Origin: Gemmatimonadota bacterium
GTDB taxonomy: Bacteria > Gemmatimonadota > Gemmatimonadetes > Longimicrobiales > RSA9
Assembly: GCA_018224305.1 (NCBI GenBank)
Contig: JAGTUV010000009.1
Location: 1-34,107 of the forward strand
DNA length: 34,107 bases
Reading direction: 5' to 3'
Shown here in pieces: positions 14,716 to 32,287 of the stretch (its first letter is position 1; each line of letters begins with the position of its first letter). Below the pieces are notes generated by a model. The model saw only the letters and a list, made by a program, of their open reading frames with translations, was not told the origin of the DNA and made no database searches. The position numbers were made by a program, and so were the translations under genes.

Positions 14716-14763
14716 CTAGTCGACTGTCTCGAATGCCGCGGAACTTTGGAGACAGTCCATTAG
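14716..14763. repeat. 48-bp imperfect inverted-repeat (MITE/REP-like) element with CTAG/CTAA ends
   Basis: CTAGTCGACTGTCTCGAATG ... CTTTGGAGACAGTCCATTAG; the arms are 16/20 complementary. Confidence 0.7.
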
Positions 14764-15176
14764 TCGTCTGCCTTCGCAGCCTGCTGCCCACCCCGACCGG
14801 ACCCGCCCTGAGCACCGGCCTCGAGCGCGACGGTCAGGAGAAACGCTGCACCCGCCTCGGATTGCACCGTGTGCGGCAGGCCCGCGCCGGCCGACAGCAT
14901 CTCACCAGCAGCGACATCGTGAGATTGCCCGCCGATCGTGAAGCGGATCGACCCATCCAGCGGCTGCACCGTGATCGGTCCGTCCGCGCTGTGCTCCGCC
15001 AGCTCTCCGCCCGGCCCGAGCACCACCAGTGTCACACGCAGCGGTCCGTCCTTGAGCAGAGTACGCGCCGAACGGCCGTGCTTCTGAATGGTCGCCGGGT
15101 CCGCAGTACGCTCACGTTCCTCGTGGAGCTGGAACACCATGACATCGCCGGAGAGCGGGCGCTGGATGGAGGGCAT
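14760..15176 (-). CDS. Cupin domain protein
   Basis: GGELAEHSADGPITVQPLDGSIRF and AGEMLSAGAGLPHTV. TGATG coupling to the upstream gene. Confidence 0.85.
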   Translation of the reverse strand: MPSIQRPLSGDVMVFQLHEERERTADPATIQKHGRSARTLLKDGPLRVTLVVLGPGGELAEHSADGPITVQPLDGSIRFTIGGQSHDVAAGEMLSAGAGLPHTVQSEAGAAFLLTVALEAGAQGGSGRGGQQAAKADD

Positions 15177-16441: not shown

Positions 16442-17398
16442 TCAGTTGCTGCGCCGGATGAACACACGCACGAGATCCGGCTCCTGCTCCCGTACGTCGT
16501 ACGTGAATCCGCGTTCCTCCAGCATCGGCAGCAGGAACTGCGGCACACGCACATTGATCTGAACGAGCGTCGCTCCCGCCGGCAGCTGCTCGAGCGCGGC
16601 CAGCGTGCGCACCATCGGCTCCGGCGGTTCGAGGTCACGAACGTCGATAATCACCACGTCCTGCTCCGCGTCCGGCGCTGCATCGCCACGAGAAAGGTCG
16701 GGTGCTTCCGGAGAGGGCCCGTCGGCTGGAGCCCGGGCGCCGGCCGCGGGGCGGGCGACCGCGTTACCCCCTGGCTCCTGATCGGGCACCGAGGGCTGGG
16801 CATCGACAGCAGGCGGATGAAACCACACACGCCAGTCGTCGTCCGCCAGTCGCTCGGTCCAGTGCTCGAGACCCTGACGCTTCATGACCGCATAGAGCGG
16901 CACCGGCTCGAAGATCGCCCGCACGCAGAGCACACCACCCGCCGGCACCGTTCGCAGTGCTGCCATGATCAGGCTGAAAGGCTCACGTCCGGCACGCAGT
17001 TCGTCGCGCACGTCCAGCTCGATGACATCCTCGGAAGCGACGCGCTCCAGAGCTTCCGGACGCTTACCCGCATTGCTCGACACCACGTCCCCGTCCTCCT
17101 TCGTGCGTGACTCCACGTTCGCCGGTGCGGCGTGTGACTCCACCTTCGCCGGTGCGGCGCGCGACTCCACGCTCACCGGTGCGCCCGACCCATGCGCGTT
17201 CAGCCGAGCCACGAGCTCCTCCGCATTGACACCCGCCACCCGCGCCGCCTGCTCTACCGTCACGAGCCGCGCCATCACTTTCCTCATTCCTGCATGCCGC
17301 AGTCGCTCAAAGGCCGGCGAGAGCGATACGAACACATCGATTAGCGATTCATCGCGCCCGATCACCGTTGACACTCGGTCCGTACGGGAGATCACCAT
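16442..17398 (-). CDS. DUF1858 + 2x DUF2249 fusion protein
   Basis: N-terminal '[15 protein letters not shown]...[22 protein letters not shown]' (DUF1858-like), then [14 protein letters not shown]...FEPVPLY and [16 protein letters not shown]...RVPQFL. Confidence 0.82.
17107..17183. repeat. 27-bp tandem repeat x~3 (VESxAAPA linker)
   Basis: GACTCCAC cores at 17109, 17136 and 17163. Confidence 0.85.
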
Positions 17399-17688
17399 GC
17401 CCCCTCCTGGATCATCTCCGGATTCCACGCGGGCTCCCACACCAGATGCGGATGGACTTCCTCGACACCGGGCACTGCGGACACCGCGTTAACAATCGCA
17501 CTCGTGATGTGGCGCTCGAGCGGACAACCGGGCGTCGTCAGCGTGTACGTCACCGTCACCGTGCGCTCGAAGACGTTCACGTCGTAGACCAGGCCGAGCG
17601 TCATGATGTCCAACCCGATTTCCGGGTCTATCACGGTTGCCAGTGCGGCGCACACCGCTGCCTCCTGCTCTTCCGCCTGCGGGATCAT
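17392..17688 (-). CDS. Metal-sulfur cluster assembly factor (DUF59/SufT/MIP18)
   Basis: [30 protein letters not shown] and LVWEPAW. ATG 17688 overlaps the upstream stop (ATGA). Confidence 0.93.
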
Positions 17689-18989
17689 GGTCGCGTTCTC
17701 CACAGTTTCAGCATCTGTGCACTCTCGATCACCACGCCCGTCAGCAGCATGAGTGCGCTGACGCGCGCAGCGACAGGGTATCCGGCGACGATCGCCGCAA
17801 TCATTCCGATCGTTCCCAGCACCAGTGCGCTCACCGCCAGCGTCGCTGCGCGCGTCGAGTACAGCTCCGTGACGAGAGGCACGGGCCGCGTGCCCGCGAG
17901 CGGGCCGAAGCGGTGGTACCACACCAGGAATGGCACGATCTTGTAGTAGTGCGCCGCAACGAAGAGGCTGATACCGAGGAGCACGGCGGCCACGTACGCA
18001 GTTGCGACGCGCGCACTCGCGACCGAAAGCAGTACCGGCGTCGACAGCACCAGTGCGAGGGCCAGAACGGACAGTGCCGCGGCGGCGAGGCGCATCCCCG
18101 GATCCAGCGCAGGACGATGGCGGCGTGCATAGAACGATCGGGCCTGCAACAGGAACGCGGCACAGCCCGCCGCGATCAGCACCGCAGGCGTCCAGTAGCT
18201 CACCAGTCGCGGCGCGTGATGCAGGAACGCGAGCACGCCCGTCCCCGTCGCGATCAGCGCCACGGCCGCCTTCGCAAACCGGTCGCCCGCGCCGTGGCTG
18301 AGCAGGAACATCGGCAGCAGGCGATGGCCGACACCGATCATCACCAGCAGTACCCAGCCGGCGATCGCCACGTGCAGGTGCACGCCCAGCGCGGCGACGC
18401 GTCCCGCACCGAGGTAGCCCCAGCGCAGATTGCCCGTAAGCGCCAGGCCGAGAACCAGCGTGATCATCAGAAAGAATGCAGCGCATGCGAGCGCCCACCA
18501 CGTTACGTCGCGTCGCTTCGATGCGTGCAGTGTCGCGGCCAGATTGCCGACGAAGAGCAGGATGCCCGCGCCGAACGTGGCCGCGCCGGCCAGCATCAGA
18601 ACCGGACGGTACAGCACGAGTCCGATCACGAACGCGGCCAGGCCCGGCACGTACAGCGCGAAGCTCGCGTGCGCCAGCCGCACTGAACGGATCGGCTTCC
18701 CCAGCGCCACCGGCAGGAACTGGTACAGCGCGCCCATGATCGATGTCGTGATCCAGCCCAGCGTGAACAGGTGCGTGACACCCGCGACCCGCGGCGACAG
18801 AAACGCGCCGCCCGCCAGGTCGCCCGCGACCAGAACCACGCCCGCGGCACCAGACAGCAGGAACAGCAGCGCGGCAGCGAAGTGCTCGCCCGGCAGGATG
18901 AACGGCGGCGCGTTCGCGCCCGCCATACCGGGCGCCGCTGTCGGCACAGTCTGCGGTTTCGTGCCGGCGCTCCTCGTGCGCACATCCAT
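17685..18989 (-). CDS. ~12-TM heme-copper-oxidase-homology (triple-unit HCOH/NnrS-like) membrane protein
   Basis: Three repeats: [45 protein letters not shown] and [20 protein letters not shown] 18989 is coupled (TAATG) to the regulator. Confidence 0.72.
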
Positions 18990-19720
18990 TACGCCGCTCC
19001 TCTGCGATACGTGCAGGACGCGTCTCCCGCCGGGATGTAGTTCAGACGCGTCAGCCGCTCGCCCATCAGCTCCCTCACGAACGCCAACTCCGCGCGGCAG
19101 GGAACCCGCGTCACGTCCACCACCTCGCGCAGCGGGCAATGACACAGCCGAAGCTCGGGCTGTTCCGCTCCCTCGTGCGCCAGCGCCATGAACCCCAGTT
19201 CGGAGAGGATCCGGGCCGCCTCCTCCGCCCGGGCCGGACCCTCCAGCCCTGCGACCCGCGTCAGCGCGGCGTCACGCCGCTCGGCGATGTACTCGTCGAA
19301 GAACTCCTCGAGCAGCGCTTCATTTCCAGTCGACACCAGGTGCATGACCAGGCCCCGAAGGACCTCGCCTTCACGACGCGGGAACAGCGACTCCGATGCG
19401 GCCGTCAACGCGTACACCACCTCCGGCCGGCCAGGCCCCGAACGCCGCGTGCCCCGCCGCTCCACCAGGCCCTCCGCCGTCAGCGCCTGCAGATGATGCC
19501 GGACCGTCTCGACATTCAGCCTCGCCTCCTCCGACAGCAGCGGGATCGTCGCCGAGCCCCGACGCTTGAGGCTGTTCACCAGCTCCCGCCGCGTCCCGTT
19601 CAGCCCCGGCGCACTCATGCCCGCCGGGCTCGCCGCCGGCACGCTCGGCCCCAGCGCGCCAGCCGCCAGTGCGCTCAGCGCCGCCTGAACAATCTCTTCC
19701 CGGCCGCCGTTGCGGTCCAT
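18989..19720 (-). CDS. SufR-like HTH transcriptional regulator with Fe-S ligand motif
   Basis: HTH ([15 protein letters not shown]...[12 protein letters not shown]). C-terminal CP-x11-C-x2-E...C ([17 protein letters not shown]...GDASCTY). GGAGG RBS. Confidence 0.85.
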
Positions 19721-19933: not shown

Positions 19934-20374
19934 ATGGAACCATTCGTCAGGAACTTCATCCGATCGAGCCTGCTGTGGCTGGGCGGCGGCGTATTGCTCG
20001 GGGTGTGGATGGCGGTGTCACCGCAGGCGATCCTCTACCGTCCTGCCCACGTTCATGCGAACCTGCTCGGCTTCGTGAGCATGATGATCTTCGGCGTCGC
20101 ATACCACGTGATTCCGCGATTCACAGGCAGCCCGTTGCGCAGCCGCAGGGTTGCGGTGCTGCATCTGTGGGTGGCGAATGTCGGCCTCGTGGGCCTGGTT
20201 GGCGGCTGGCTGCTGCGGCCATCGATGTGGGAAGCGGGCACGGCAGCGGTGATGACGGGTGGGGTCGTGAGCGCCACCGGCTCGTTCCTGTTCATCGGCA
20301 ACCTGTGGCTGACGCTCGGTCCGGTCCGACGGGCAGCGCGCCCTGGCGTCCTGCACTCTGGACCTGCCGCGTGA
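19934..20374 (+). CDS. Small 4-TM single-unit HCOH/NnrS-like membrane protein
   Basis: MEPFVRNFIRSS...PAHVHANLLGFVSMMIFGVAYHVIPRFTG. AGGA RBS. Paralog of 14258-14713. Confidence 0.78.
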   Translation: MEPFVRNFIRSSLLWLGGGVLLGVWMAVSPQAILYRPAHVHANLLGFVSMMIFGVAYHVIPRFTGSPLRSRRVAVLHLWVANVGLVGLVGGWLLRPSMWEAGTAAVMTGGVVSATGSFLFIGNLWLTLGPVRRAARPGVLHSGPAA

Positions 20375-20971: not shown

Positions 20972-22078
20972 ATGGCCACACTCTCCCCTGCGGCACCGGT
21001 TGCGGTTCGACCGGACTGGCGGCTCGACATCCCCGAAGAGAAGCGGCGTCCCATCCGCGTCTGGCTGTGGAGCATCGCCGCGCTGACGTTCGGTGTGATG
21101 GTCGTCGGAGGAATCACGCGCCTGACGCTGTCCGGGCTGTCGATCGTTTCCTGGGACCCGCTCTTCGGCGTGATACCGCCGCTCAGCGACGCGCAGTGGC
21201 AGGCGACGTTCGAAGCGTACAGGCAGTTCCCGGACTACGACTGGCGAACCGGCATGACACTCGCCGAGTTCAAGTTCATCTTCTTCTGGGAGTATCTGCA
21301 CCGCCTGCTTGCAAGGCTGATCGGATTCGCGTTCCTGATCCCGTTCGTCTGGTTCCTGGCGCGCGGCTACTTCAACCGTGCGCTTACGGGTCGTGCGCTC
21401 GCACTGTTTGCGCTGGGCGGGATGCAGGGCGTCATGGGCTGGTTCATGGTGATGAGCGGACTCGTCGACCGCCCGAGCGTCAGTCATTACCGCCTCGCCG
21501 CACACCTGAGTCTGGCCTTCCTCATCTTCGGCTACGCGCTCTGGCTCGCGCGCGACCTCCGCCTGACGCGGGCACGCGCTGTGGTGGACCCGGGCGTCCA
21601 TCGAATGATGTTACGCGGTCTGGCGCTGCTCGGCGCTGTGACGAGCGTGCAGATCGTATGGGGTGCGTTCGTCGCGGGGCTGCGTGCCGGCAAGTTCTAT
21701 CCGACGTTCCCGCTGATGGGCGGCAGCCTGGTCCCGGCGGAACTGCTTCGTCTCGATCCGTTTACGCGCAACTTCGTCGAGAACCCCGTCGCAGTGCAGT
21801 GGATGCACCGCGTGCTTGGCACGCTGCTGCTCGTCGTCGCAGTCGTCTTTGTCGCGCGCGTGCTCCGTTCCGCTGCTGATGCGCTGTCGCGCCGGCTCGG
21901 CGTCATCGTGCTGAGCCTCATCTCCGTGCAGTATCTGCTCGGTGTTCTGACGCTCGTGTATCTGGTGCCGATCAGCCTCGGTGTGATTCACCAGGGCGTC
22001 GCGCTGGTGATCTTCGGTGCATGGCTGTGGTGGCTGCACCACGTGCGGAACCTCGATGTGCAGGGAAGGGCAGCATGA
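20972..22078 (+). CDS. ctaA: Heme A synthase (COX15/CtaA type 2)
   Basis: VGGITRLTLSGLSI, FWEYLHRLLAR, WFMVMSGL, RLAAHL, QWMHR and HQGVA. Confidence 0.95.
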   Translation: MATLSPAAPVAVRPDWRLDIPEEKRRPIRVWLWSIAALTFGVMVVGGITRLTLSGLSIVSWDPLFGVIPPLSDAQWQATFEAYRQFPDYDWRTGMTLAEFKFIFFWEYLHRLLARLIGFAFLIPFVWFLARGYFNRALTGRALALFALGGMQGVMGWFMVMSGLVDRPSVSHYRLAAHLSLAFLIFGYALWLARDLRLTRARAVVDPGVHRMMLRGLALLGAVTSVQIVWGAFVAGLRAGKFYPTFPLMGGSLVPAELLRLDPFTRNFVENPVAVQWMHRVLGTLLLVVAVVFVARVLRSAADALSRRLGVIVLSLISVQYLLGVLTLVYLVPISLGVIHQGVALVIFGAWLWWLHHVRNLDVQGRAA

Positions 22079-23436
22079 AAGCGGAACGCACGCCGGATCT
22101 CGCCACCTCCACTCCGTCTGAGGGCAGGCCGGATCTCACCGGCGCAGGTGCGCCATCCGGCAGGCCGGATCTCGCCGGGATCGATTTCGCGCAGTCACCG
22201 TTCCTCGTCATCTGGGAGGTCACGCGCGCATGCGACCTCGCCTGCCTGCACTGCCGCGCGGAAGCGGTGACGAATCGCAATCCGCTGGAGCTGTCGACGG
22301 AGCAGGGGAAGCGCCTCATGGACGACGTGCGCCGGTTCGGCCGGCCTCTGTTCGTCCTCACGGGCGGCGATCCGCTGAAGCGTCCCGACGTTGTCGAACT
22401 CGTCGAGTACGGCGCTTCGATCGGGCTGCGCATGGCGATGACTCCATCCGGCACGCCGCTGATGACCGAACCCGTGCTCCGGGACCTGAAGGCGGCAGGA
22501 CTCTCGCGCCTGGCGGTGAGTCTGGATGGGTCGAGCGCAGACATCCATGACGCGTTCCGGGGGGTCGAGGGGTCGTGGGCCTGGACCATCCGGATGCTGG
22601 AGGTCGCGCGCGAGATCGGGCTCACGACACAGGTCAACACGACGGTCAGCATGCACAACCTCGACGATTTCGACGCGCTGTGCGACCTGATGGTCCAGCT
22701 CGGCATCACGCTCTGGAGCGTGTTCTTCCTCGTGCCGACCGGTCGTGCGAAGTCCGGCGACGTCGCGAGTGCCGACGAATTCGAGAGCGTGTTCCATCGC
22801 ATGTATGACCTGTCACAGACAGCGCCGTTCGACATCAAGAGCACGGCCGGACCGCAGTATCGGCGTGTGATCCTCCAGCGCCAGGTCGCTGAACGCCGCG
22901 CGGGCGATCGCACGGCCGCTGTAACTCCGCTGACGGCAGGTGTCGGCTTTTCGCTCGCTGACGGCGTCGGCCGGGCCAAGGGCGTGAACGACGGCGATGG
23001 CTTCGTCTTCGTGAGCCACGTGGGCGCAATATACCCTTCCGGGTTTCTCCCGCTCGCGGCCGGCAACGTGCGCAAGGACGACATCGTGGATGTGTACCGC
23101 AATGCGCCGCTGTTCGTGGAGTTGCGCGACCGCACACGGCTGAAGGGGAAATGCGGCGTCTGCGAGTACCGCGATGTGTGTGGTGGAAGCCGGGCTCGCG
23201 CGTATGCCGTGTCCGGTGACTACATGGAGTCCGAGCCATTCTGTGCGCACGTGCCAGCACGCTGGCAGCGCATGGTCGATGCGGGCGAGGCCGAGCCGGT
23301 GGCGGAGTACTTCGAACGCCGCGGGCTGACTGATCGGTCGCTGCCGGTCATTGATGACGGTGTTCCGGCGCAGGGACGGGCGGCGCGCGGTCAACCGCCG
23401 GCTGGTGGTCAGATGCCGTCCGCGACGGCGACTTGA
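22075..23436 (+). CDS. Radical SAM/SPASM protein, TIGR04053-like (AhbD/NirJ-related)
   Basis: WEVTRACDLACLHCRA, LTGGDP and FFLVPTGR. SPASM region KGKCGVCEYRDVCGGSRARA...PFC. ATGA overlap with ctaA. Confidence 0.88.
   Translation: MKAERTPDLATSTPSEGRPDLTGAGAPSGRPDLAGIDFAQSPFLVIWEVTRACDLACLHCRAEAVTNRNPLELSTEQGKRLMDDVRRFGRPLFVLTGGDPLKRPDVVELVEYGASIGLRMAMTPSGTPLMTEPVLRDLKAAGLSRLAVSLDGSSADIHDAFRGVEGSWAWTIRMLEVAREIGLTTQVNTTVSMHNLDDFDALCDLMVQLGITLWSVFFLVPTGRAKSGDVASADEFESVFHRMYDLSQTAPFDIKSTAGPQYRRVILQRQVAERRAGDRTAAVTPLTAGVGFSLADGVGRAKGVNDGDGFVFVSHVGAIYPSGFLPLAAGNVRKDDIVDVYRNAPLFVELRDRTRLKGKCGVCEYRDVCGGSRARAYAVSGDYMESEPFCAHVPARWQRMVDAGEAEPVAEYFERRGLTDRSLPVIDDGVPAQGRAARGQPPAGGQMPSATAT
22092..22178 (+). 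repeat. 36-bp-period imperfect repeat (xPDL x3) in the radical SAM N-terminus
   Basis: GCCGGATCTC cores at 22092, 22128 and 22164. Confidence 0.8.
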
Positions 23437-23451: not shown

Positions 23452-23946
23452 ATGTCCTTCTACTTCATCAACGTGACGGTGCACGTGTTCGCCGCGCTGT
23501 TCTGGCTCGGCGGTATGTTCTTCCTCGCCGTAGTCGGTGCCCCGGTCCTGCGGGCCGTCGAGCCGCCGGAACTGCGCGCGATGCTGTTCCGCCGGCTCGG
23601 CGAACAGTTCCGTACGGCTGGCTGGATCGCCATCGTCATTCTCCTGGTCACGGGAACGCTCAATCTGTATTTCCGCGGCATGCTGACGCTCGATGTTCTG
23701 GCGAGCGGGGATTACTGGAGTTCACGATACGGCCGGTCGCTCGCGTGGAAGGTCGGTGCCGTGACTGCGATGCTGATCGTTCAGGCAGTGCATGACTTCG
23801 GAGTCGGCCCTGCCGCAGCCCGCCTGACGCCCGGCACACCGGAGGCGCTGGCGATACGCCGGCGTGCGGCGCTGCTGGCCAGATTCAGTGCCGTGCTCGG
23901 CATCATCGTGGTCATTGCAGCCGTCAGGCTCGCACGCGGCGGGTGA
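23452..23946 (+). CDS. CopD/DUF4149-like 4-TM membrane protein
   Basis: VHVFAALFWLGGMFF, LLVTG, LAWKV and AVHDF. Confidence 0.72.
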   Translation: MSFYFINVTVHVFAALFWLGGMFFLAVVGAPVLRAVEPPELRAMLFRRLGEQFRTAGWIAIVILLVTGTLNLYFRGMLTLDVLASGDYWSSRYGRSLAWKVGAVTAMLIVQAVHDFGVGPAAARLTPGTPEALAIRRRAALLARFSAVLGIIVVIAAVRLARGG

Positions 23947-24000: not shown

Positions 24001-24870
24001 TCAGAAGGGAAGCAGCAGGTCCGCCACCAGTGCACCCAGCACCAGCGGCAGCACGAGCAGTGAGCTGAAGAAGAGCCGTCGTGCGGGGAGGCGTTCCGGC
24101 TCGCGCACGAACCGCCAAGCAAAGAGTACGTATCCTGCTGCCGTCGTGCCGGCGATGGCCGCGTACAGTGCACCGATCGGTGCCGAGAGGCCGAGCATCA
24201 CAACGCACACGAGCATCGCGAACGCGTACATGAACGAGACCCGGGCGCTCGACCGTCCCGTGGGTTCCACGATGTTCAGCAGCACACAGCCCGCTCGCTC
24301 ATAGTCCTCCCTGCCCAGACAGCCGATGGCCAGAAAGTGTGGTATCTGCCACATGAACAGCACCCCGGTCAGTGCCAGTGCCGCTCCGTTGATCGGCACG
24401 CCCGCAGCCGTCCATCCCGCCAGCACGGGTAGTGCACCGGGGATCGCGCCCGCGAGGGTGCAGAAAGCGGTGCGGCGCTTGAGCGGTGTGTACAGATAGA
24501 CGTAACTGACGTGGCTCAGCACGAGAAATACCGTCGCGGGCCAGGGCAGCAGGCTGACCGAGATGACGAACCCCACGGCGCTGAGGCTCCAGCCGAAGAG
24601 GCCGGCGTTGCGCGGACTGATCATGCCGGACGGGATGGGCCGTCCGGCGGTGCGGCGCATCCGTGCATCGCCCGTACGCTCGGCCAGGTGATTCAACGCT
24701 GCTGCCCCCCCGGACATGAGCATGGTCGCGAGCAATGCAATGGCGAGTCGCACGGGCTGGCCCCACCCGCCCGTCGCCGTGATGAAGCCCGCGGCAGCGC
24801 TCGTGCCGATGAACAGCGTGATGCCGGGCTTCGTCAGCTCGTAGTACCCGCTCAGTACGCGCGCCGACAT
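24001..24870 (-). CDS. ctaB: Protoheme IX farnesyltransferase (heme O synthase)
   Basis: ELTKPGI, DARMRRTAGRPIPSG, YTPLKRRT, GAIPGALP and WQIPHF. Confidence 0.95.
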   Translation of the reverse strand: MSARVLSGYYELTKPGITLFIGTSAAAGFITATGGWGQPVRLAIALLATMLMSGGAAALNHLAERTGDARMRRTAGRPIPSGMISPRNAGLFGWSLSAVGFVISVSLLPWPATVFLVLSHVSYVYLYTPLKRRTAFCTLAGAIPGALPVLAGWTAAGVPINGAALALTGVLFMWQIPHFLAIGCLGREDYERAGCVLLNIVEPTGRSSARVSFMYAFAMLVCVVMLGLSAPIGALYAAIAGTTAAGYVLFAWRFVREPERLPARRLFFSSLLVLPLVLGALVADLLLPF

Positions 24871-25772
24871 CAGAGACGACCCACGAGGTTAACGATCGCC
24901 GCCGAGCCCCCCGTAGTCGCGTACGCGATCCGGCCATCCCGATCGATGATGTAGACCAGTGACGGATGTGTGATCTCGCCCGTGGTCATATCTCTCACAC
25001 GCGGGACCTCCCATGCGTCGAGCGCGCCCTCCACATCATCGACCGATCCACCGAGCACCCATGCATCGGCCGCCGGAAGTCCCCACGACTTCGCCATCGC
25101 CGGGAGCCGCGAGGGCGTATCGCGCCACGGATCCAGCGTGACGACCAGCACCGTGACGTCCATGCCGCCGGCCGCCAGATCGTACTGCGCCGTGAGCACG
25201 TGCTTCACGACGAGCGGGCATATCGTCTCGCAGTGTGCGTACGCGAACGTCACGAGCACCGGTGCTCCGCGGAACTGCGCCAGCTCCCGCGTAACACCAT
25301 CGTGCGCCTGTAGTGCGAGAGCCGGCGCACGACGGTCGAGTCTCGGGTAGGTGGATGGAGGAAGCTCGCCGTCCGCATCCGGTATGAATGCCAGTGCGCG
25401 CGCCTGCTGCACTCTCGCGCCCGCACCAATGACCAGCACCATGCAGCCGATCGCCAGTGCGCCCAGTGTTGCCGACAGAGCCCGCGACGTACGGGCACGT
25501 TCCGCGAGCCGGCGCACGCCGCCCCACCACGCGATCAGCAGAATGATGAGCATGCCGAGCGGGCCGAAGATCAGGCCGATCCAGCCGCCCGCATCCGGCA
25601 GTCCGCTCTCGGTCACGCCGAAGCACACGTAGCGTGTGCGCTCGAGCCACACGGGCCCATCCTGCACCGGCCAGAAGGCCAGTGCCCACCACGCACTCGT
25701 AATGACGAACAGTGCGATCAGTCCGGTCATCACGATTCGCGCTTCCCGGTCCGGTGCAGGCGGGTGCGTCAT
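24870..25772 (-). CDS. SCO family CuA chaperone with 3-TM N-terminal extension
   Basis: FAYAHCETICP (CxxxC), TLDPWRDTP and ITHPSLVYIID. N-terminal TM block with RYVCFG. TGATG coupling on both sides. Confidence 0.88.
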   Translation of the reverse strand: MTHPPAPDREARIVMTGLIALFVITSAWWALAFWPVQDGPVWLERTRYVCFGVTESGLPDAGGWIGLIFGPLGMLIILLIAWWGGVRRLAERARTSRALSATLGALAIGCMVLVIGAGARVQQARALAFIPDADGELPPSTYPRLDRRAPALALQAHDGVTRELAQFRGAPVLVTFAYAHCETICPLVVKHVLTAQYDLAAGGMDVTVLVVTLDPWRDTPSRLPAMAKSWGLPAADAWVLGGSVDDVEGALDAWEVPRVRDMTTGEITHPSLVYIIDRDGRIAYATTGGSAAIVNLVGRL

Positions 25773-27526
25773 CAGCCGATCTTCCACACGAAGGACAGCA
25801 GCTTCCAGTTCGCGAAGTAGTAGATCGCGAACGCGGCGAGGAACACGGCGACGAGAATCATGGTGCCGGGTGCCTGACCCAGGCGTCCCGTCGGCAGGTT
25901 CGCCTCATCTGCCACGGTCACGGGACGCGGCGGGCGAGTGATACCCTGTGGCAGACCCTTCGCGCCGGGTACGCGGTCCGCTTCCGTGAACGGCTTGCCG
26001 AAGAACACCGACCACACGGTAATCAGGATGTAGAGGCCGCCGCCCAAAGCCGCAACGAGGCCGCCGAGCGCCATGATCCCCATCAGCGCGTCGACCGCGG
26101 GATGGAATGCCTGCTCGAACGGTGCGCCCGTGAAGCCGATATCCCAGTGCCGGCGCGGTACGCCGAAGCCGCCCGAGAACGACATGAAGATCGAGAAGAC
26201 CAGCATGCCGCCCGCGAACATGTACGGCTGTATTTGCGCGAGCCGCCAGAACGCCACTTTCTTGCGGAAAATCAGCGGGATCAGGTAGTACGTCAGGCCC
26301 ATGAACGCCATCGTGGTGCCGCTCACTACCGTTGCGTGGAAGTGGCCGGGCACGCGGAGCGTGTTGTGTACGACAATGTTGATCTGCTCCGTACCGATCG
26401 TGACTCCCGTGATTCCACCGACGAAGCCGAACACGACGATCGACAGTGCGAGCGAACTGAAGCCCGGGTCACCCCATGGCGCTCGCTTCACCCAGCCGAA
26501 CAGGCCCTGCGATGCACCGCGAAGCCGCTGGCCGATCTCCACGCCCGCCGGCACCGTAAACCCGTGCAGCATGCTCGCCAGTACCGCCATGTACATGAAG
26601 TAGCTGGTGTTCACCACCTTCCACGACGAGCTGAAGCCGGGGTCCACCAGCAGATGGTGTGCGGAGGCCATCGAGATGAACAGGATGTAGAGCACGAACG
26701 CCGTGCGGCTGATCTTCTCGCTCAGTACCACGGATCCGACCGTGAGCGCGCCCAGCAGGTACCAGATCGCAACCATCGCCGCGACGTTGATCTGCTGCGA
26801 CGAGTGGCCGAGCGCCCACCAGAGCATACGATACACCTGCGGATCGACGCTCATCCAGCCGATCGACCAGAAGAACGTCGGGATGTACGTGGCCGCCCCG
26901 TGCAGCAGCGTGATCACGGCGATGATGGCCGCCGCAACAGCGCCGTACGTGACCAGCGGCAGCGATCCCTCGTACGTCTTCTCGCGCTTCGCGATCACGA
27001 GCGTCGCGAAGAACTGGAAGCACACCAGCAGTGCGCCCACCGCGAAAAAGATGATGCCCAGGTAGTACAGCGGGTCCGCGCGCAGCGGGATGTAGGATGT
27101 CATCAGAACGTCGGCCTTGCCGGTCCAGATCATCCACTCGCACAGCGTTGCTCCCAGCGTCATCAGCCCGAAGTTGAACCACCCCAGCTTCGGCGCGGCG
27201 ATCCTGCTGTTGAGCATCGGGCCCGCCGCGAAATACAGGACGGCCATCTCGAAGAAGATGATGAAGAAGATCAGCATCGTGAGTCCGTGCGCCGTCAGCA
27301 CCCGATAGAACATTACGGGATCCAGCAGGTGCACCGCCTGCCAGCGCGTGAGCAGTATCAGGATGGCGCTGACGCCGCCGATGAGCAGGGCCACGGTCGC
27401 GGCCACGGCATTCGCCTTGATGAGTCGTTCCGCCGGACGATGCAGCTTCAGCCCGGTTACCTCGCAGGTGCGGAACACCTCGCCGGGGCCGCTTCCACCC
27501 TGCGGCGTCTCGAGTACCGTTGCCAT
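25772..27526 (-). CDS. Heme-copper oxidoreductase subunit I, B-family-derived, probable eNOR-type nitric oxide reductase
   Basis: All six His ligands are present (LTAHG, LGHSSQQ, SAHHLL, PGHFHA), plus PRR. Gln stands in place of the cross-linked Tyr (H+4). Candidate Glu ligand in VPAGVEIG. Confidence 0.85.
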   Translation of the reverse strand: MATVLETPQGGSGPGEVFRTCEVTGLKLHRPAERLIKANAVAATVALLIGGVSAILILLTRWQAVHLLDPVMFYRVLTAHGLTMLIFFIIFFEMAVLYFAAGPMLNSRIAAPKLGWFNFGLMTLGATLCEWMIWTGKADVLMTSYIPLRADPLYYLGIIFFAVGALLVCFQFFATLVIAKREKTYEGSLPLVTYGAVAAAIIAVITLLHGAATYIPTFFWSIGWMSVDPQVYRMLWWALGHSSQQINVAAMVAIWYLLGALTVGSVVLSEKISRTAFVLYILFISMASAHHLLVDPGFSSSWKVVNTSYFMYMAVLASMLHGFTVPAGVEIGQRLRGASQGLFGWVKRAPWGDPGFSSLALSIVVFGFVGGITGVTIGTEQINIVVHNTLRVPGHFHATVVSGTTMAFMGLTYYLIPLIFRKKVAFWRLAQIQPYMFAGGMLVFSIFMSFSGGFGVPRRHWDIGFTGAPFEQAFHPAVDALMGIMALGGLVAALGGGLYILITVWSVFFGKPFTEADRVPGAKGLPQGITRPPRPVTVADEANLPTGRLGQAPGTMILVAVFLAAFAIYYFANWKLLSFVWKIG

Positions 27527-28143
27527 CAGTTGACCTCCAGCGCCTGCGCGGCTTCGCCGGGCATTGTTCCGTCCTCATTCGTCACGAGTACCTTGCCCAG
27601 CATCAGGTGATGGCCTACACCGCAGAATTCGTTACAGATCACCCCGAAGTCGCCCGCTTCGGTCGGCACGATCTTCAGTCCATAATCGTATCCGGGGACG
27701 ATCTGGAAATTGATGTTGACGGGATACAGCGAGAAGCCGTGGTTCACGTCCGTGGACGACAGATGCAGCGTGTACTCGGAGCCCTTCCGCAGCTTGAGTA
27801 TCGGGTACCAGCTCCACATGCGTCCGAGCATGTACACGTCGCTGCCCGGAGGCGGTTCGACAACCGGGAACCCGTTCATGGTGCCCACCTGGTAGTCCGC
27901 TACGAACTGATTGACGCGCGCCTCGAACGCGGCTGGCTCCACCCTGCTTCGGATGCCCGACGCGTTCTGTCCGCCCTTCCAGTGCCAGAGCGGCATCATC
28001 GCGAACAGCACCATGCACCACGCGAACGCGATCCCGAACCACACCTTCTCGGAACGGTGTGCGGGCACCCACCAGCGCCCCTTCGGCGAGACCATGCCGG
28101 TGTTCATTGGGCGCCGGTCTCCGTCCTGCGCCGGGGCGGTCAT
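27526..28143 (-). CDS. Heme-copper oxidoreductase subunit II (CuA)
   Basis: DVNHGF and CNEFCGVGHHLM CuA motif. One TM helix, as in ba3-type subunit II. ATG 28143 overlaps the upstream stop (ATGA). Confidence 0.93.
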   Translation of the reverse strand: MTAPAQDGDRRPMNTGMVSPKGRWWVPAHRSEKVWFGIAFAWCMVLFAMMPLWHWKGGQNASGIRSRVEPAAFEARVNQFVADYQVGTMNGFPVVEPPPGSDVYMLGRMWSWYPILKLRKGSEYTLHLSSTDVNHGFSLYPVNINFQIVPGYDYGLKIVPTEAGDFGVICNEFCGVGHHLMLGKVLVTNEDGTMPGEAAQALEVN

Positions 28144-28319
28144 GGCAGCTCCGCCGTCGGCATGCTCGTGATCTCCCACAGGCCCCAGCCCGTGTAGATC
28201 ACGCCCATGATCACAATCCCCGCGATCATCAGAAGCAGCCAGTTGTCGTAGAGCCGCTGGCCGAGCGGCTCCTTCGCTGGGTCGTTGTCGTATGCATCAG
28301 GTGTGCGATCACTGCTCAT
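28140..28319 (-). CDS. Small single-TM subunit (subunit IIa-like), 59 aa
   Basis: GGAG RBS. QRLYDNWLLLMIAGIVIMGVIYTGWGLWEI. First gene of the oxidoreductase operon. Confidence 0.75.
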   Translation of the reverse strand: MSSDRTPDAYDNDPAKEPLGQRLYDNWLLLMIAGIVIMGVIYTGWGLWEITSMPTAELP

Positions 28320-28423
28320 GGTTTGCTCCGGTGACTGAAGTCGGCCCGGCATAAGTGGAGTACAGCATGTAGATATGAGGATATACCGGGCAGCGGCGGC
28401 GGCCATAGTCGGATTCCTGAACC

Positions 28424-28445: not shown

Positions 28446-28526
28446 CGAACACGGGGTTCGGCCCCTACTTTACCGTGTGCCGCCCCAGCAGGGTTCGGCC
28501 GATTATTCCTCTGGCGATGGGCGAGG

Positions 28527-30074
28527 ATGCAGCCGCGGTTCAGCTATCGAAGCATCTCACGGGTGGACACCTGGCTCAATCGCGTCTACACGTCACGCTA
28601 CAACCCTCTGTATCACAGCGGTGCGATAGTGATCGCAATGCTCCTGGTGCTGCTTGCGACCGGGTTGTATCTGCTCATCTACTATCGGATCGGCGCGCCG
28701 CACGCATCAGTCGAACGCATCGATGCGCAGTTGTGGACGGGCCGCTGGATCAGGGGTCTGCATCGCTTTGCGTCGGATGCGGCGGTCGTGGCTGCGCTCG
28801 TGCATGCGTTCCGGATGTACGCGCAGAGACGCACGTGGGGGCCGCGCGCACTCGCGTGGGTCAGCGGAGTAGTCCTGCTGGTTGTGATCATGGTATCCGG
28901 CTGGACCGGTTACGTGCTGGTGTGGGACACGCACGCACAGCTGATCGCGGCGGAAGGTGCGCGGTGGCTGGATGCGCTGCCGCTGTTCAGCGAGCCGATC
29001 GGTCGCTCGTTCGTCGGCGAGAGTGACCTGCCCGGCGGATTCTTCTTCCTGAATCTGTTCGCGCACATCGCACTGCCGATCGGCATGGGGGTTCTGCTCT
29101 GGGTTCACATCGCACGCGTGGCGCGGCCGGTGCTGTTGCCGGCGCGCCCGGTGCTGTGGGGGAGCATCGCCGCGCTCACGCTGCTCGCGATCGTCTGGCC
29201 CCCGCCGATGGCGCCCGCCGCGGACCTGCTGCGCGTGCCACAGAATGTGCCGGTGGACTGGTTCTTCGGATTCTGGCTCCCGCTGACGATACGGCTGCCC
29301 GCATGGGGGGTGTGGCTGCTCGGCGTTCTGGTGCTGGCTCTCTTTGCCGCCATCCCGTGGCTGACAAGGCCGCGTCCCCAGGAGCTGCCTGCGCCCGCCA
29401 CTGTCGATGAACGCACATGCACCGGCTGCGAGCAGTGCGTTCATGACTGCCCGTACGATGCGATCGAGATGATCGCTCGAACAGGTGACAGGGAAGGGAT
29501 GATCGCGCGGGTGAAGACGGAGCTCTGTACGAGCTGCGGCATCTGCATAGGTTCGTGTCCGCCGATGGCCATCAGCGCGCTCGGCACGTCTGCGCGCGCG
29601 CAGCTCGAGGAGGCGCGCGCGTTCCTGGCGGAGGAGACGCCGGGGGAACGGGACCTCGTGATCGTCGGCTGCAGCTGGAGCGGCGCACGTGCGGAGGCGG
29701 AGCGATCCGGTGCGAAGTTCATGAGCGTGCCATGCATCGGTGCGATGCATTCGTCGACCGTGGAGATCCTTCTGCGCGGCGGTGCCGGCGGCGTGCTGGT
29801 AGCCGGCTGCCCCGAGCACGACGGCCGGACACGTGAAGGAGTGACCTGGACTGAGGAACGCCTCTTTCAGGGACGTGCCGCCGACCTGAAGCCGCGCGTC
29901 GATCGCAGCCGCATCCGGCTGGTCCAGGCGACGCTCGGGGAAAAGGTACTCCTCCACGAGTCCGTGCGTGCGTTCGCTGCCGAGATTGATGCGCTCGCTG
30001 ACGCCAACGGTGAGATCGACGTCGTCGATCTGTGCAGAAAGGCTCAGCCCGCCGTCCAGGAGGAATCCTCGTGA
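28527..30074 (+). CDS. Cytochrome b(bc1/b6-like) + 2x[4Fe-4S] ferredoxin + MvhD/FlpD-like fusion protein
   Basis: Two H-x13-H pairs (GLHR...LVHA and FAHI...WVHI), GWTGYVL and PEWY-like PVDWFF. CTGCEQCVHDCP and CTSCGICIGSCP. MvhD-like VGCSWS, VPCIG, GVLVAGCP and SRIRLV. Confidence 0.85.
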   Translation: MQPRFSYRSISRVDTWLNRVYTSRYNPLYHSGAIVIAMLLVLLATGLYLLIYYRIGAPHASVERIDAQLWTGRWIRGLHRFASDAAVVAALVHAFRMYAQRRTWGPRALAWVSGVVLLVVIMVSGWTGYVLVWDTHAQLIAAEGARWLDALPLFSEPIGRSFVGESDLPGGFFFLNLFAHIALPIGMGVLLWVHIARVARPVLLPARPVLWGSIAALTLLAIVWPPPMAPAADLLRVPQNVPVDWFFGFWLPLTIRLPAWGVWLLGVLVLALFAAIPWLTRPRPQELPAPATVDERTCTGCEQCVHDCPYDAIEMIARTGDREGMIARVKTELCTSCGICIGSCPPMAISALGTSARAQLEEARAFLAEETPGERDLVIVGCSWSGARAEAERSGAKFMSVPCIGAMHSSTVEILLRGGAGGVLVAGCPEHDGRTREGVTWTEERLFQGRAADLKPRVDRSRIRLVQATLGEKVLLHESVRAFAAEIDALADANGEIDVVDLCRKAQPAVQEESS

Positions 30075-30637
30075 GTGCAGCGCCCATGAACCCGGAACGA
30101 GGCCGTGCGGTGCGCACCCGAATCGTCCGCTGGCTCGCGCCCGTGCTCGTCACTGCCGTCATGACCGTGGGCATCGGCTGGCTTGCGCGCGCACCCTATC
30201 AGCCACCAGGCTCCGACAGCGCGACACTGCGACTGTCGTGGCGGTTGCGCGCGCCCGTCGCGGAGACGTGCAGGCCTCGTACGCAGGCCGAGCTCGATGC
30301 GCTCCCCGTGCATATGCGTACGCCCGAAGTCTGTCAGAGCCGTAGCGCGGCGTACGACCTCATTGTGCAGGTGGACGCGCGGACTGCGGACACCTCGAGG
30401 GTGCTGCAGGGCGGCGCGAAGGGCGACCGCCCGCTCTTTGTCCTGAAGGAACTGTCGCTCGAACCCGGACCGCATCATGTCCGCGTCCGCTTCGCCTCCG
30501 GTGCCGGCTTGCCGGCGGAAGAGTCTGTCGTTCTGGCGCTCGACACCGTGCTGCACATGCATGCTGGCACAGTTGATCTCGTCACTCTCGGTCCCGACGG
30601 CCGCACGTTGATTGTGCGGCAGTCGACACAGCCATGA
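30071..30637 (+). CDS. Membrane-anchored hypothetical protein with C...HM...C motif
   Basis: GTGA overlap with the fusion gene. One TM helix, then TCRPRTQAELDALPVHMRTPEVC and a beta-rich domain. Confidence 0.72.
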   Translation: MSAAPMNPERGRAVRTRIVRWLAPVLVTAVMTVGIGWLARAPYQPPGSDSATLRLSWRLRAPVAETCRPRTQAELDALPVHMRTPEVCQSRSAAYDLIVQVDARTADTSRVLQGGAKGDRPLFVLKELSLEPGPHHVRVRFASGAGLPAEESVVLALDTVLHMHAGTVDLVTLGPDGRTLIVRQSTQP

Positions 30638-30650
30638 AAGGGTTGTTCCA

Positions 30651-32123
30651 ATGACGACTATCGAATATCCGATGCCCGTTATCATCCAGGGCGGCATGGG
30701 CATTGGCGTGTCCGGCTGGCAACTGGCGCGCGCTGTATCGCGTCGCGGTCAGCTCGGCGTCGTGTCCGGTACTGCCATCGACTCGCTCTTCGTGCGACGC
30801 CTCCAGGATGGGGATCCGGGCGGACATGTGCGTCGCGCGATGGAGCACTTTCCGCTGCCGGACGTGAGTGCGGCCGCACTCGATGCGTACTTGCTGCCCG
30901 ACGGGCGCGCGGGCGCGCCGTATCGGGCCCTCCCCATGTGGCGCCAGATCGTGAGCCAGGCACGCGAACAGGTCACCATGCTCGCCAGCTTCGTCGAGGT
31001 GTACCTGGCCCGGGAGGGCCACGAGGGTATGGTGGGGATGAACCTGCTCACCAAGGTCCAGCTTCCGAACCTCGCCACGCTCTACGGCGCGATGATGGCG
31101 GGCGTCGACTGCATCATCATGGGAGCCGGCATCCCGCGCGAAATCCCTGCCGTGCTCGATGCGTTCGCAGAGGGACGTCCAGCCTCCATGAAGTTCGATG
31201 TGGAAGGACTGGAGCGAGGCGAGAGTGAGAGCATCACATTCGATCCGGCCCGGCACTGGACCGGTGCCGTGCCCGCACTCCACCGGCCTCTGTTCTTTCC
31301 CGTCGTCGCCGCCCACTCGCTTGCGACCATGCTCGCGCGCAAGTCGGTGGGCCGTATCGATGGCTTCATCGTCGAGGGTCCGACGGCCGGCGGCCACAAT
31401 GCGCCGCCGCGCGGCGCTACGGTCATGAATGACCGCGGCGAGCCGGTGTACGGTGAGCGTGATACCGTCGACCTCGACGTGATGCGCAGCCTGGGCCTCC
31501 CTTTCTGGCTCGCCGGCGGAACGGGCTCCGCGGAAGGCCTGCAGGCCGCCCTCCGCGCGGGCGCCGCGGGCATCCAGGTCGGCACCCTGTTCGCCTACGC
31601 CGATGAAAGCGGCCTCGCCTCCGATCTGAAGCATCGCGTGCTCCAGCAGGTGCGCTCCGGCGGTGCCGATGTGGTGACCGATCCGCGCGCCTCTCCGACC
31701 GGGTTCCCGTTCAAGGTCGTCGGCCTCGATGACACCAATTCCGATGACACGCTCTACGCCGGGCGCGAACGCGTGTGCGATCTCGGCTACCTGCGCAACG
31801 CCTACCGACGCGAGGACGGCAGGATCGGCTACCGCTGTGCCGCCGAACCGGTCGATGCATTCGCCAAGAAGGGCGGCTCTGTCGATGAGACGGACGGCCG
31901 CAAGTGCCTCTGCAACGGACTCATGGCCAACATAGGCCACCCACAGGAACGGGACGACGGCCCGGAGCGCGCCCTGATTACCAGCGGTGATGATCTGCTG
32001 CTCATGAAGGACTTCCTGCGCACGCGGGAGTCATATACCGCTGGCGACGTCATCGATTACCTCCTCGGCGTCCACGCGTCCGATCCGGTAACAGGGGCCA
32101 GCGTCCCGGCCGAGGCCTCATGA
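30651..32123 (+). CDS. Nitronate monooxygenase/FabX-like FMN TIM-barrel with Cys-rich C-terminus
   Basis: IIQGGMGIGVS, VEGPTAGGH, AGIQVGTLF and SPTGFP. Cys residues in VCDLG, YRCAAEP and KCLCNGL. Confidence 0.85.
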   Translation: MTTIEYPMPVIIQGGMGIGVSGWQLARAVSRRGQLGVVSGTAIDSLFVRRLQDGDPGGHVRRAMEHFPLPDVSAAALDAYLLPDGRAGAPYRALPMWRQIVSQAREQVTMLASFVEVYLAREGHEGMVGMNLLTKVQLPNLATLYGAMMAGVDCIIMGAGIPREIPAVLDAFAEGRPASMKFDVEGLERGESESITFDPARHWTGAVPALHRPLFFPVVAAHSLATMLARKSVGRIDGFIVEGPTAGGHNAPPRGATVMNDRGEPVYGERDTVDLDVMRSLGLPFWLAGGTGSAEGLQAALRAGAAGIQVGTLFAYADESGLASDLKHRVLQQVRSGGADVVTDPRASPTGFPFKVVGLDDTNSDDTLYAGRERVCDLGYLRNAYRREDGRIGYRCAAEPVDAFAKKGGSVDETDGRKCLCNGLMANIGHPQERDDGPERALITSGDDLLLMKDFLRTRESYTAGDVIDYLLGVHASDPVTGASVPAEAS

Positions 32124-32201: not shown

Positions 32202-32275
32202 GCGGGCGTAGCTCAGTTGGCTAGAGCGTCAGCCTTCCAAGCTGAATGTCGTGGGTTCGAATCCCATCGCCCGCT
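32202..32275 (+). tRNA. tRNA-Gly (anticodon TCC), CCA not encoded
   Basis: Acceptor stem GCGGGCG/CGCCCGC, anticodon stem TCAGC/GCTGA with loop CTTCCAA, T-loop GTTCGAATC. Confidence 0.97.
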
Positions 32276-32287
32276 CTGTGTAAGAGA

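Follow-up and report, generated by a model that had tools for sequence, protein, structure and literature searches.

A Rieske-less cytochrome b fusion as a candidate electron module for eNOR-type nitric oxide reductases

Introduction

How does a nitric oxide (NO) reductase with a periplasmic-side electron entry site obtain its electrons where no Rieske protein or cytochrome c1 is encoded beside it? The question is raised by a locus of a Gemmatimonadota bacterium (assembly GCA_018224305.1, 95% complete; contig JAGTUV010000009.1), of which we analysed a stretch of 34,107 nucleotides, referred to throughout as the window. Here a gene for a bc-type diheme cytochrome b fused to two [4Fe-4S] motifs and an MvhD/FlpD-like domain lies next to the genes of an eNOR-type heme-copper enzyme. 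A previous reading of the window (the original prediction) had taken this fusion for a possible new electron conduit to the NO reductase. eNOR itself is reported to be common in nature and a genuine N2O-producing NO reductase (PMC11214002); for this source, as for PMC8756737, PMC5600118 and the preprint 10.64898/2026.01.22.701106, our statements refer to the portions of the text that were available.

The answer that we favor, with a probability of roughly one half, is that the fusion and a beta-sandwich protein encoded just after it form a transmembrane electron module, Rieske-less and reserved for eNOR, from which this enzyme would receive its electrons. The topology of this module, the occupancy of its cofactor sites, its contact with eNOR, the identity of its donor and the direction of electron flow are the parts of the proposal that we infer; its domains, conserved ligands and fold, its fused and split forms and its near-obligate genomic tie to eNOR are what the data show.

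Results

A bc-type cytochrome b fused to two [4Fe-4S] motifs and an MvhD/FlpD-like domain

The fusion gene is an open, uninterrupted reading frame for 515 amino acids (Table 1), and its predicted three-part architecture was borne out by Pfam matches, four invariant His residues, eight Cys residues and an AlphaFold2 (AF2) model. The Pfam family Cytochrome_B (PF00033) matches residues 24-196 with an E-value (E) of 1.6e-15 and 57.9 bits against a cut-off of 27.2, and phmmer aligns the protein with the b6 chain 6rqf_I at E 6e-17. Conservation was counted in a 54-sequence alignment and in a wider set of 255 relatives, 121 of them close and 134 distant; the heme ligands H79, H93, H180 and H194 are invariant in both (255/255 in the wider set). 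The AF2 model, which was built with the 54-sequence alignment (pLDDT 93.3, pTM 0.90), has six helices, not eight, contains bc1-like cd and ef elements, and shows, in keeping with the pTM of 0.90, one fixed arrangement of the membrane part relative to the soluble parts. In Foldseek, the membrane portion of the model aligns with bc1 cytochrome b along some 285-335 columns and with b6 at a TMt of 0.70. The PEWY-like motif noted earlier, PVDWFF, is indeed present at residues 242-247; its Asp, D244, is kept in 121/121 close and 126/134 distant relatives, and W245 of the xDWF motif is poorly kept in the distant ones (51/134). The NCBIfam family cytb_ExtP (NF040969) is matched below its curated cut-off (87.9 bits vs 290), and no fused form longer than 902 residues turned up in a search that is weak evidence on this point. 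Because homology to bc1 and b6f puts the N-terminus and the end of helix F on the negative side of the membrane (n-side), the Fe-S and MvhD domains would be cytoplasmic and the PVDWFF loop periplasmic.

The two cluster motifs, C298xxC301xxC304xxxC308P and C334xxC337xxC340xxxC344P, match the Pfam families Fer4, Fer4_7 and Fer4_21. All eight Cys residues are invariant in the 54-sequence alignment, and the sole exception among the 255 relatives is one Ser at C301. FlpD (PF02662) follows at residues 395-490 (E 5.2e-9; 36.6 bits vs a cut-off of 22.3) and is matched by 46/54 aligned relatives at E <= 1e-3; the MvhD chains 9sw2_D and 7bkb_F give weak matches (E 0.08-0.6) in which three Cys positions align. 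These positions, C382, C403 and C428, are kept throughout close and distant relatives, whereas the remaining two of the five positions that hold Cys in MvhD are occupied by Ser and Gly in the clade of the window protein. The original assignment to MvhD/FlpD therefore stands for the identity of the domain and needs amending for its Cys positions, of which this clade keeps only three. The second Cys of CPxxxC is found in 111/134 distant relatives; close relatives have Gly433 (118/121), flanked by the fixed residues H431 (119/121) and D432 (121/121), so that a site of three Cys plus His or Asp is a plausible ligand set for the cluster of this domain. The NCBIfam family HdrA2 (NF040770) is matched below its cut-off (62.8 bits vs 1100), with E 1.7e-17 for the HdrA2 C-terminus. 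The fusion is the only FlpD gene of the genome, and no Hdr or hydrogenase family is among the conserved neighbors at 101 loci, HdrA itself not having been searched for in the genome.

Two genomes of Gemmatimonadota have a broken fusion gene (G137:C6:188957-190466 and G189:C36:289106-290548). One copy is split over two frames at about residue 223 and the other has a single in-frame TGA; either could be a sequencing error or a sign of decay.

The fusion accompanies eNOR in more than 15 phyla

In the window, the fusion gene is divergent from the eNOR operon, as had been reported, with a gap of 120 bp to the small open reading frame (ORF) at the head of that operon; the order beyond the gap is small ORF, COX2-like subunit II, COX1-like subunit I, SCO and heme o synthase. 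Aligned with the ba3 oxidase of T. thermophilus, subunit I has Gln instead of the cross-linked Tyr (GHSSQQ vs GHPIVY), and the His equivalents of ba3 H72, H233, H282, H283, H384 and H386, which serve the hemes and CuB/FeB, all align. This Gln is what defines eNOR (PMC8756737, section 2.7.1 and Table A4). In subunit II, the CuA residues H147, C182, E184, C186, H190 and M193 are invariant among 71 sequences.

Homologs of the fusion are numerous: an exhaustive search of cluster representatives returned 3998 of them at E <= 1e-3 and 413 at E <= 1e-30. We examined their surroundings in two sets of loci, both from species-representative genomes. Set 1 comprises 100 distinct loci, found with the window protein and with an alignment of moderately distant relatives as queries, the latter search contributing the best 80 of at least 390 relatives (among 600 matched stretches). 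For set 2 the query was an alignment of the most distant relatives, and again the best 80 loci were taken, here of at least 546 relatives (600 stretches). Together the 180 loci span more than 15 phyla, a breadth that the original prediction had missed; set 2 alone covers SAR324, Nitrospirota, Thermodesulfobacteriota, Alpha-, Beta-, Gamma- and Zetaproteobacteria, Verrucomicrobiota, Rhodothermales, Aquificae, Rokubacteria, Myxococcota and one archaeal metagenome-assembled genome (MAG) of Hydrothermarchaeota. A search with a Rhodothermales relative of the fusion gave seven loci, all from MAGs.

An eNOR enzyme was counted if it lay within 10 kb, and loci with less than 5 kb of upstream flank were held too short to judge. 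By this measure eNOR genes are present at 91 of the 100 loci of set 1, the others being seven with a short flank and two with 10 kb of flank and no enzyme, and at 60 of the 80 loci of set 2, where 15 are too short and five lack the enzyme. Overall, 151 of 180 loci have the enzyme, or 151 of the 158 informative ones once the 22 short flanks are set aside; the architecture occurs almost exclusively beside eNOR-type enzymes and not, as would have told against the proposed connection, away from them. The seven genomes in which the fusion is not adjacent, together with one short-flank case, have an eNOR-like subunit I elsewhere (52-66% identity); in one further short-flank genome no such subunit was found. 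The motif GHxxQQ occurs in 143 of the 147 adjacent enzymes with the active site covered, and the other four are one partial match, two in which the motif itself is uncovered and one GHMLQF. The co-directional order of small ORF, II, I, (CtaB), SCO and fusion is seen at 16 loci of set 1 and 56 of set 2. At the level of whole genomes, an even sample of 201 Gemmatimonadota contains the fusion in 42 and an eNOR-like subunit I in 42, with both in 41 and neither in 158; in 40 of the 41 the two genes share a contig. The association of the fusion with eNOR is very strong, and near-obligate for one large eNOR clade, and because of this synteny and co-occurrence the assignment of the module to the NO reductase is well supported.

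An alternative that the same counts bear upon is that the fusion is an enzyme or sensor in its own right, a quinol-to-cytoplasm or cytoplasm-to-quinone oxidoreductase or a redox sensor, whose induction by NO or low-oxygen stress coincides with that of eNOR while no electrons pass between the two. The seven loci with the fusion away from eNOR would fit such co-regulation, as would the genes of NO-stress type (DUF2249/DUF1858, DUF59) nearby in the window. We nevertheless regard this as highly improbable, given that co-occurrence across genomes is near-perfect, that most phyla have the genes in a single co-directional operon, and that the fusion never stands alone without eNOR among the genomes tested.

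Three loci deserve mention for the enzyme itself. In a Nitrospirae MAG (locus L126, from about position 3879 onward), the heme-copper gene beside the fusion is 30% identical to subunit I of the window, and its active site, GHMLQF, has neither Tyr nor the Gln of eNOR at the position in question. In a Bdellovibrionales MAG (L091:6708-9056) and an Acidobacteriota MAG (L103:6573-8495), the frame of subunit II runs into that of subunit I; these continuous frames of 783 and 641 residues could be II-I fusions or assembly errors.

A fourth module is encoded by the next reading frame

The original prediction had the unit end at position 30074. The fusion frame does end there, and a fourth module in the ORF that follows had been missed. 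This protein is predicted to have one transmembrane helix and a beta-sandwich (AF2, pLDDT 92.7), in which H76, M77 and C83 are invariant among 79 homologs. Most distant relatives carry this module as a C-terminal continuation of the fusion itself. Of 150 relatives of the fusion listed, 109 have at least 620 residues, and in 82 of these the C-terminal extension matches the beta-sandwich ORF by phmmer; the remaining 27 have a transmembrane-plus-beta-rich tail of the same type, as judged by eye. A homolog is detectable at 96 of the 100 loci of set 1, fused to the cytochrome at 15, mostly outside the Gemmatimonadota and in co-directional operons, and as a separate ORF at 81, mostly in the Gemmatimonadota and as in the window. 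These sequence relationships indicate that the fusion and the downstream ORF are one unit, which would thus run past 30074.

A periplasmic position of the beta-sandwich fits two observations: the relative P0243 has a CxxCH motif after the beta-sandwich, and Table A3 of PMC8756737 lists a Chloroflexi ORF in which cytochrome b6, an Fe-S domain and FlpD occur together with a cytochrome c domain. The beta-sandwich ORF matches no Pfam or NCBIfam family, and in the ESM Atlas it meets only clusters of "hypothetical protein" without Pfam families. The best Foldseek match in the PDB is the luminal domain of HGSNAT (E 5e-4, TMq 0.39), and a wide VIA-align search returns generic immunoglobulin-like, CBM-like and cytolysin domain-4-like sandwiches with a best Z of 7.0. 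Cupredoxin, Rieske, DOMON-type and copper-chaperone folds are not prominent among these matches, which exclude none of them.

No Rieske or cytochrome c1 partner in the genome

Profile searches upheld the reported lack of Rieske and cytochrome c1 genes in the window and extended it to the 95%-complete assembly, in which neither a bc1-type Rieske protein nor cytochrome c1 (PF02167) nor the C-terminal cytochrome b domain or subunit IV (PF00032) is matched; cytochrome f was not searched for. PF00032 gives no match in the genome although the model of the fusion aligns with bc1 over some 285-335 columns. The three proteins with a Rieske domain (PF00355) are all of soluble or oxygenase type: a soluble protein of 111 residues between SufD- and SufS-like genes, a ring-hydroxylating oxygenase-like protein and a fusion of an FAD-oxidoreductase with a Rieske domain. 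The fusion gene is the single match to PF00033, so that no second cytochrome b was found. When all ORFs of 101 loci were clustered, no cytochrome c, Rieske, hydrogenase or Hdr protein emerged as a conserved neighbor. The genome of 3.6 Mb holds four heme-copper enzymes, the other three being an A-family oxidase (GHPEVY), a B-family oxidase with Tyr (GHAIVY) and a NorB-like enzyme (HLWVEG) on contigs C141, C104 and C188.

A paralog with a different cytoplasmic end

What may be the best clue to function, on sequence grounds, comes from a Gallionella locus (L135) with the order II, I, CtaB, SCO, a 646-residue paralog of the fusion, a beta-sandwich homolog, a COX1-like ORF and a 525-residue protein. 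The last is a cytochrome b-Fer4-FlpD protein of the same family as the window fusion. The 646-residue paralog has a cytochrome b 31% identical to that of the window (E 7e-49), and in its C-terminal part Fer2, FAD_binding_6 and NAD_binding_1 (Pfam) replace the Fe-S/MvhD portion. The beta-sandwich homolog of 173 residues is recognized by hhalign with 99% probability (E 8e-18), and the COX1-like ORF is a weak match of 469 residues. That an NAD(P)H-flavin module can stand in for the Fe-S/MvhD portion points to an exchange of electrons with soluble reductants at the cytoplasmic end of the cytochrome. The gene order matches that of the Ferrigenium straubiae operon in the preprint 10.64898/2026.01.22.701106. 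Its section 6.5.2 describes eNOR II and I together with heme o synthase, sco1 and the cytochrome b fusions; the authors find the two cytochrome b genes "rather unusual", see in them possible Ferrigenium markers, and report the homologs in the proteome of denitrifying Fe(II)-oxidizing growth. They propose a quinol:NAD+ oxidoreductase supercomplex with eNOR that is driven by NO reduction.

Such a coupling would amount to bifurcation, or reverse flow: quinol would be oxidized at the Qo-like site, one electron passing uphill in potential to eNOR, and the large span from quinol to NO, more than 1 V, would drive the second through hemes bL and bH and the Fe-S clusters to a low-potential acceptor. 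For the window protein this acceptor might be ferredoxin or a partner of MvhD, and for the Gallionella paralog NAD(P)+. Besides the Ferrigenium proposal, the conserved xDWF Asp (121/121 and 126/134) and the bc1-like cd and ef elements of the model are what one would expect of it, and the ferredoxin-type clusters are joined to MvhD, a domain known from Hdr complexes with flavin-based bifurcation; a parallel is offered by the anammox complexes of Rieske protein and cytochrome b cited in PMC5600118, whose Fe-S subunits bind NAD(P). Bifurcation of the known Qo type, however, depends on a high-potential centre that docks at the site of the quinol, and neither a Rieske protein nor a substitute cofactor is identifiable. 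W245, moreover, is kept in only 51/134 distant relatives, and it is not obvious why heterotrophic Gemmatimonadota would require reverse electron flow. Modules of the Fer2-FAD-NAD kind, like that of the Gallionella paralog, usually act as NAD(P)H-oxidizing donors. On balance, we consider bifurcation quite unlikely.

Neighboring genes in the window

The features of the window are collected in Table 1. The small ORF at the head of the eNOR operon belongs to no Pfam or NCBIfam family; tblastn finds it at 83/87 (set 1) and 24/60 (set 2) loci with COX1 and the fusion. Among the 101 clustered loci, the only accessory families are CtaB (19 loci), CtaA (18), a small protein resembling a COX1 fragment (14), a CopD-like protein (13) and a radical SAM protein (11). 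In the window, the radical SAM protein (22021..23436, +) and the CopD-like/DUF4149 membrane protein (23452..23946, +) lie between CtaA and CtaB. We set aside the idea that the fusion module replaces heme a synthase because CtaA is present in the window.

Table 1. Coordinates of the fusion, its parts and the neighboring genes, counted from the first nucleotide of the window
Feature	Coordinates	Strand	Basis
Fusion gene, 515 residues: bc-type diheme cytochrome b (6 transmembrane helices) - 2x[4Fe-4S] - MvhD/FlpD-like	28527..30074	+	ORF, Pfam, invariant ligands, AF2, Foldseek
Cytochrome b four-helix bundle, residues 24-196, ligands H79, H93, H180, H194	28596..29114	+	PF00033, phmmer to b6, invariant His
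Helices E and F, residues 207-279, with loop on the positive side (p-side) carrying the PEWY-like motif	29145..29363	+	DSSP of model, bc1 cytochrome b alignment past helix D
PEWY-like P242-V-D244-W-F-F247 (residues 242-247)	29250-29267	+	D244 conservation
Two [4Fe-4S] motifs, residues 291-347, predicted cytoplasmic	29397..29567	+	Fer4 families, eight conserved Cys
MvhD/FlpD-like domain, residues 395-490	29709..29996	+	PF02662, MvhD chain alignment, column counts
Split-off fourth module, 183 residues from ATG 30086 (longest ORF: GTG 30032)	30086..30637	+	phmmer, alignments, AF2
Small membrane ORF, <=88 residues, heads eNOR operon, next to subunit II	28140..28406	-	tblastn
eNOR subunit II, 217 residues: one transmembrane helix and cupredoxin with complete CuA site	27526..28179	-	PF00116
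eNOR-type heme-copper subunit I, 584 residues; GHSSQQ at residues 240-245	25772..27526	-	PF00115, ba3 alignment
SCO1/SenC-type copper protein, 305 residues, long N-terminal membrane extension	24870..25787	-	PF02630
Heme o synthase (CtaB)	24001..24870	-	TIGR01473, 223 bits vs cut-off 210
Heme a synthase (CtaA/COX15), accessory cluster gene in Gemmatimonadota	20972..22078	+	PF02628, E 9.5e-101

Several other features of the window are recorded here as observations. Two small membrane ORFs (14258..14815, -, and 19934..20374, +) show weak partial matches to PF00115 at profile positions of about 310-397; they form one family, seen at 14 of the 101 clustered loci. A weak COX1-like ORF also stands in the Gallionella operon, and this may be what the Ferrigenium preprint names the "eNOR scaffold protein". 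Upstream of an ArsR-type regulator (18989..19720) lie genes for a DUF1858 protein with two DUF2249 domains and for a DUF59 (FeS_assembly_P) protein (16442..17440, -, and 17392..18501, -). Domains of these types (DUF1858, DUF2249, DUF59) often accompany NO or oxygen stress genes. The 120-bp divergent region contains a direct repeat, GGGTTCGGCC, at 28454..28463 and 28491..28500, 37 bp apart, which might be a regulator site; no convincing palindrome was seen there. Beyond the beta-sandwich ORF follow a nitronate-monooxygenase/FabK-like flavoprotein (30612..32123, +) and a tRNA-Gly(TCC) gene (32202..32276, +). The FabK-like gene recurs, at 76% identity, at 1 of the 100 loci of set 1 and weakly at one more, and so it is probably outside the unit.

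Discussion

The complete CuA site of subunit II calls for a donor on the periplasmic side of the membrane, and we suspect that the four-module unit is, or serves, that donor. In the proposed mechanism, the MvhD-like [2Fe-2S] cluster and the two [4Fe-4S] clusters would form a short cytoplasmic wire leading to heme b on the n-side. Electrons would then cross the membrane by way of both b hemes to a periplasmic face that has a retained Qo-like pocket, with the xDWF Asp, and the tethered beta-sandwich. From there, with neither Rieske protein nor cytochrome c1 involved, the module would deliver them to the CuA of subunit II. Their source may be a cytoplasmic donor, through the Fe-S chain, the quinol pool, at the Qo-like pocket, or both. 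Such a layout would be nearer to that of NADPH oxidase, ferric reductase or MsrQ than to a Q-cycle bc1 complex. A complex prediction for residues 66-217 of subunit II and residues 38-183 of the beta-sandwich protein, made with alignments and with controls not run, scored 0.01 against a mark of 0.32, which speaks neither for binding nor against it.

A number of observations weigh against an electron supply of this kind. The beta-sandwich has no recognizable redox cofactor site and only generic fold matches; its His-Met pair is YQ in the Gallionella paralog, and its Cys pair is absent from some relatives. At the other end of the wire, the canonical fourth MvhD Cys is absent from the clade of the window protein. 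The genome also encodes an ActB/ActC pair like that of alternative complex III (ACIII), which could already feed CuA enzymes by way of cytochromes c. Purified eNOR of R. marinus is described as consisting of two subunits and reducing NO with TMPD/ascorbate (PMC11214002), from which it follows that the module is dispensable for catalysis itself. One Gemmatimonadota genome (G190), one of the two exceptions in the sample of 201, has a more distant eNOR-type cluster with neither SCO nor fusion nearby and no fusion gene genome-wide: at locus L114 (G190:C3:20000-38000), positions 7541-10001 encode the small ORF, II and a subunit I with GHGTQQ (44-48% identity), whose neighbors match no Pfam family except a protein kinase, and elsewhere this genome has only a plain cytochrome b. 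Finally, SCO usually stands between the enzyme and the fusion, and the two vary together. Both are gone in G190, and both are remnants in a decayed copy of the cluster in the other exception, genome G126 (locus L115, G126:C1:2060000-2076000, about 7375-9030), where SCO is broken into three out-of-frame pieces, the Fer4-FlpD portion is truncated (query residues 330-503) and the beta-sandwich ORF is intact; no heme-copper genes lie near this copy, and the genome has no subunit I match at E <= 1e-100.

This joint variation of SCO and the fusion fits a maturation unit equally well. In that case the fusion would act with SCO, joined in the Gemmatimonadota by CtaA, CtaB and the CopD-like and radical SAM proteins, and would send electrons outward so that copper, iron or thiols stay reduced during the insertion of CuA, the active-site metal or heme As into eNOR. 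SCO adjoins the fusion at 82/87 (set 1) and 46/60 (set 2) loci with COX1 and the fusion, the accessory genes of the cluster are cofactor genes, and purified eNOR is active without the module (PMC11214002). In joining a diheme b to a reductase part in the cytoplasm, the fusion also resembles ferric and cupric reductases. The fusion is, however, specific to eNOR (143/147 adjacent enzymes with Gln): it does not stand beside A- or B-family oxidases, which also need CuA and heme a and of which the genome encodes both elsewhere. A SCO match is absent at 14/60 distant loci, some forms have a cytochrome c-like tail, and the five-cofactor wire, the near one-to-one gene dosage and the detection of homologs in a proteome, as reported in the preprint, speak more for a respiratory subunit than for a chaperone. 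We hold a role in maturation to be unlikely and continue to favor a supply of electrons to eNOR.

The original prediction knew of no characterized example of this architecture. For biochemistry that remains so: as far as the literature examined goes, no member of the family has been characterized, and no paper was found there that brings together cytochrome b, MvhD and heme-copper enzymes. The genes themselves have been noticed before, since Gallionellaceae homologs are described in 10.64898/2026.01.22.701106 and Table A3 of PMC8756737 lists the domain combination, in its available text without discussing it. Also already known, from PMC5600118, are bc-type cytochromes b of anammox bacteria with cytoplasmic oxidoreductase subunits. 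Within the literature searched, what appears to be new is the full anatomy of four modules, the near-obligate tie, in many phyla, to a single large clade of eNOR, and the MvhD identity of the cytoplasmic end together with its clade-specific change of ligands.

A large eNOR clade, from the Gemmatimonadota to the Proteobacteria, Nitrospirota, Verrucomicrobiota, Rhodothermales, Aquificae and one archaeal MAG, carries this same Rieske-less module. If the module provides the electron input to eNOR, it would represent a new respiratory branch for aerobic and microaerobic denitrification that bypasses bc1 as well as ACIII, and the energy gained when N2O is formed would have to be counted differently. 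If it bifurcates, it would be a new route to low-potential reductant, by which NO respiration in more than 15 phyla would directly yield a strong reductant and extra membrane potential. Either way, the module is a sharper genomic marker of this eNOR clade than subunit I alone. It also provides a natural example of a bc-type cytochrome b without a Rieske partner, which bears on the origin of bc complexes, for which a scenario is given in PMC5600118.

Among the closest known systems are the cytochromes b of bc1 and b6f complexes, with which the fusion shares a homologous four-helix diheme bundle and the same His pattern; its helices E and F and p-side loop superpose on those of bc1 cytochrome b, and the PEWY position holds an acidic residue. 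Whereas bc1 and b6f work with Rieske and cytochrome c1 or f partners, the genome with the fusion has no match for Rieske, c1 or PF00032 (cytochrome f being the partner left out of the searches), and where bc1 cytochrome b goes on to helices G and H, the fusion, with only six helices, continues into its cytoplasmic Fe-S domains. Instead of the Cys (CxGG) that covalently binds heme cn in the "FYCLGG" of b6f, it has a His ("LYHSGA"). The Ferrigenium operon (10.64898/2026.01.22.701106) is of the same type as the fusion loci, L135 being its Gallionella equivalent, and differs in having two types of cytochrome b fusion, cytochrome b-[Fe-S] and cytochrome b-[Fe-S]-FAD-NADH; in the window there is a single type, that with Fe-S and MvhD, and its fourth module is encoded separately. 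That preprint proposes markers for one genus and, in its available text, mentions MvhD/FlpD zero times, whereas the family described here extends over more than 15 phyla. The anammox complexes cited in PMC5600118 likewise join a bc-type cytochrome b to a cytoplasmic Fe-S or NAD(P) oxidoreductase part; unlike the fusion, they retain Rieske and cytochromes c, are multi-subunit rather than fused and, in the accessible text, are unlinked to eNOR. With the C-terminus of HdrA2 the fusion shares the order of Fer4 plus FlpD, the latter with PF02662 above its cut-off, and the MvhD of Mvh-Hdr complexes is a weak match for its domain, which is tethered here to a membrane cytochrome. In NADPH oxidase and ferric reductase, in MsrQ and in NarI-NarH, two stacked b hemes join a cytoplasmic redox module to the opposite face of the membrane. 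Although their heme-binding folds are unrelated to the bc-type fold of the fusion, their acceptors differ and neither sequence nor fold matched the fusion to them, the wiring logic is alike, and the Gallionella paralog even has the FAD-NAD(P)H module.

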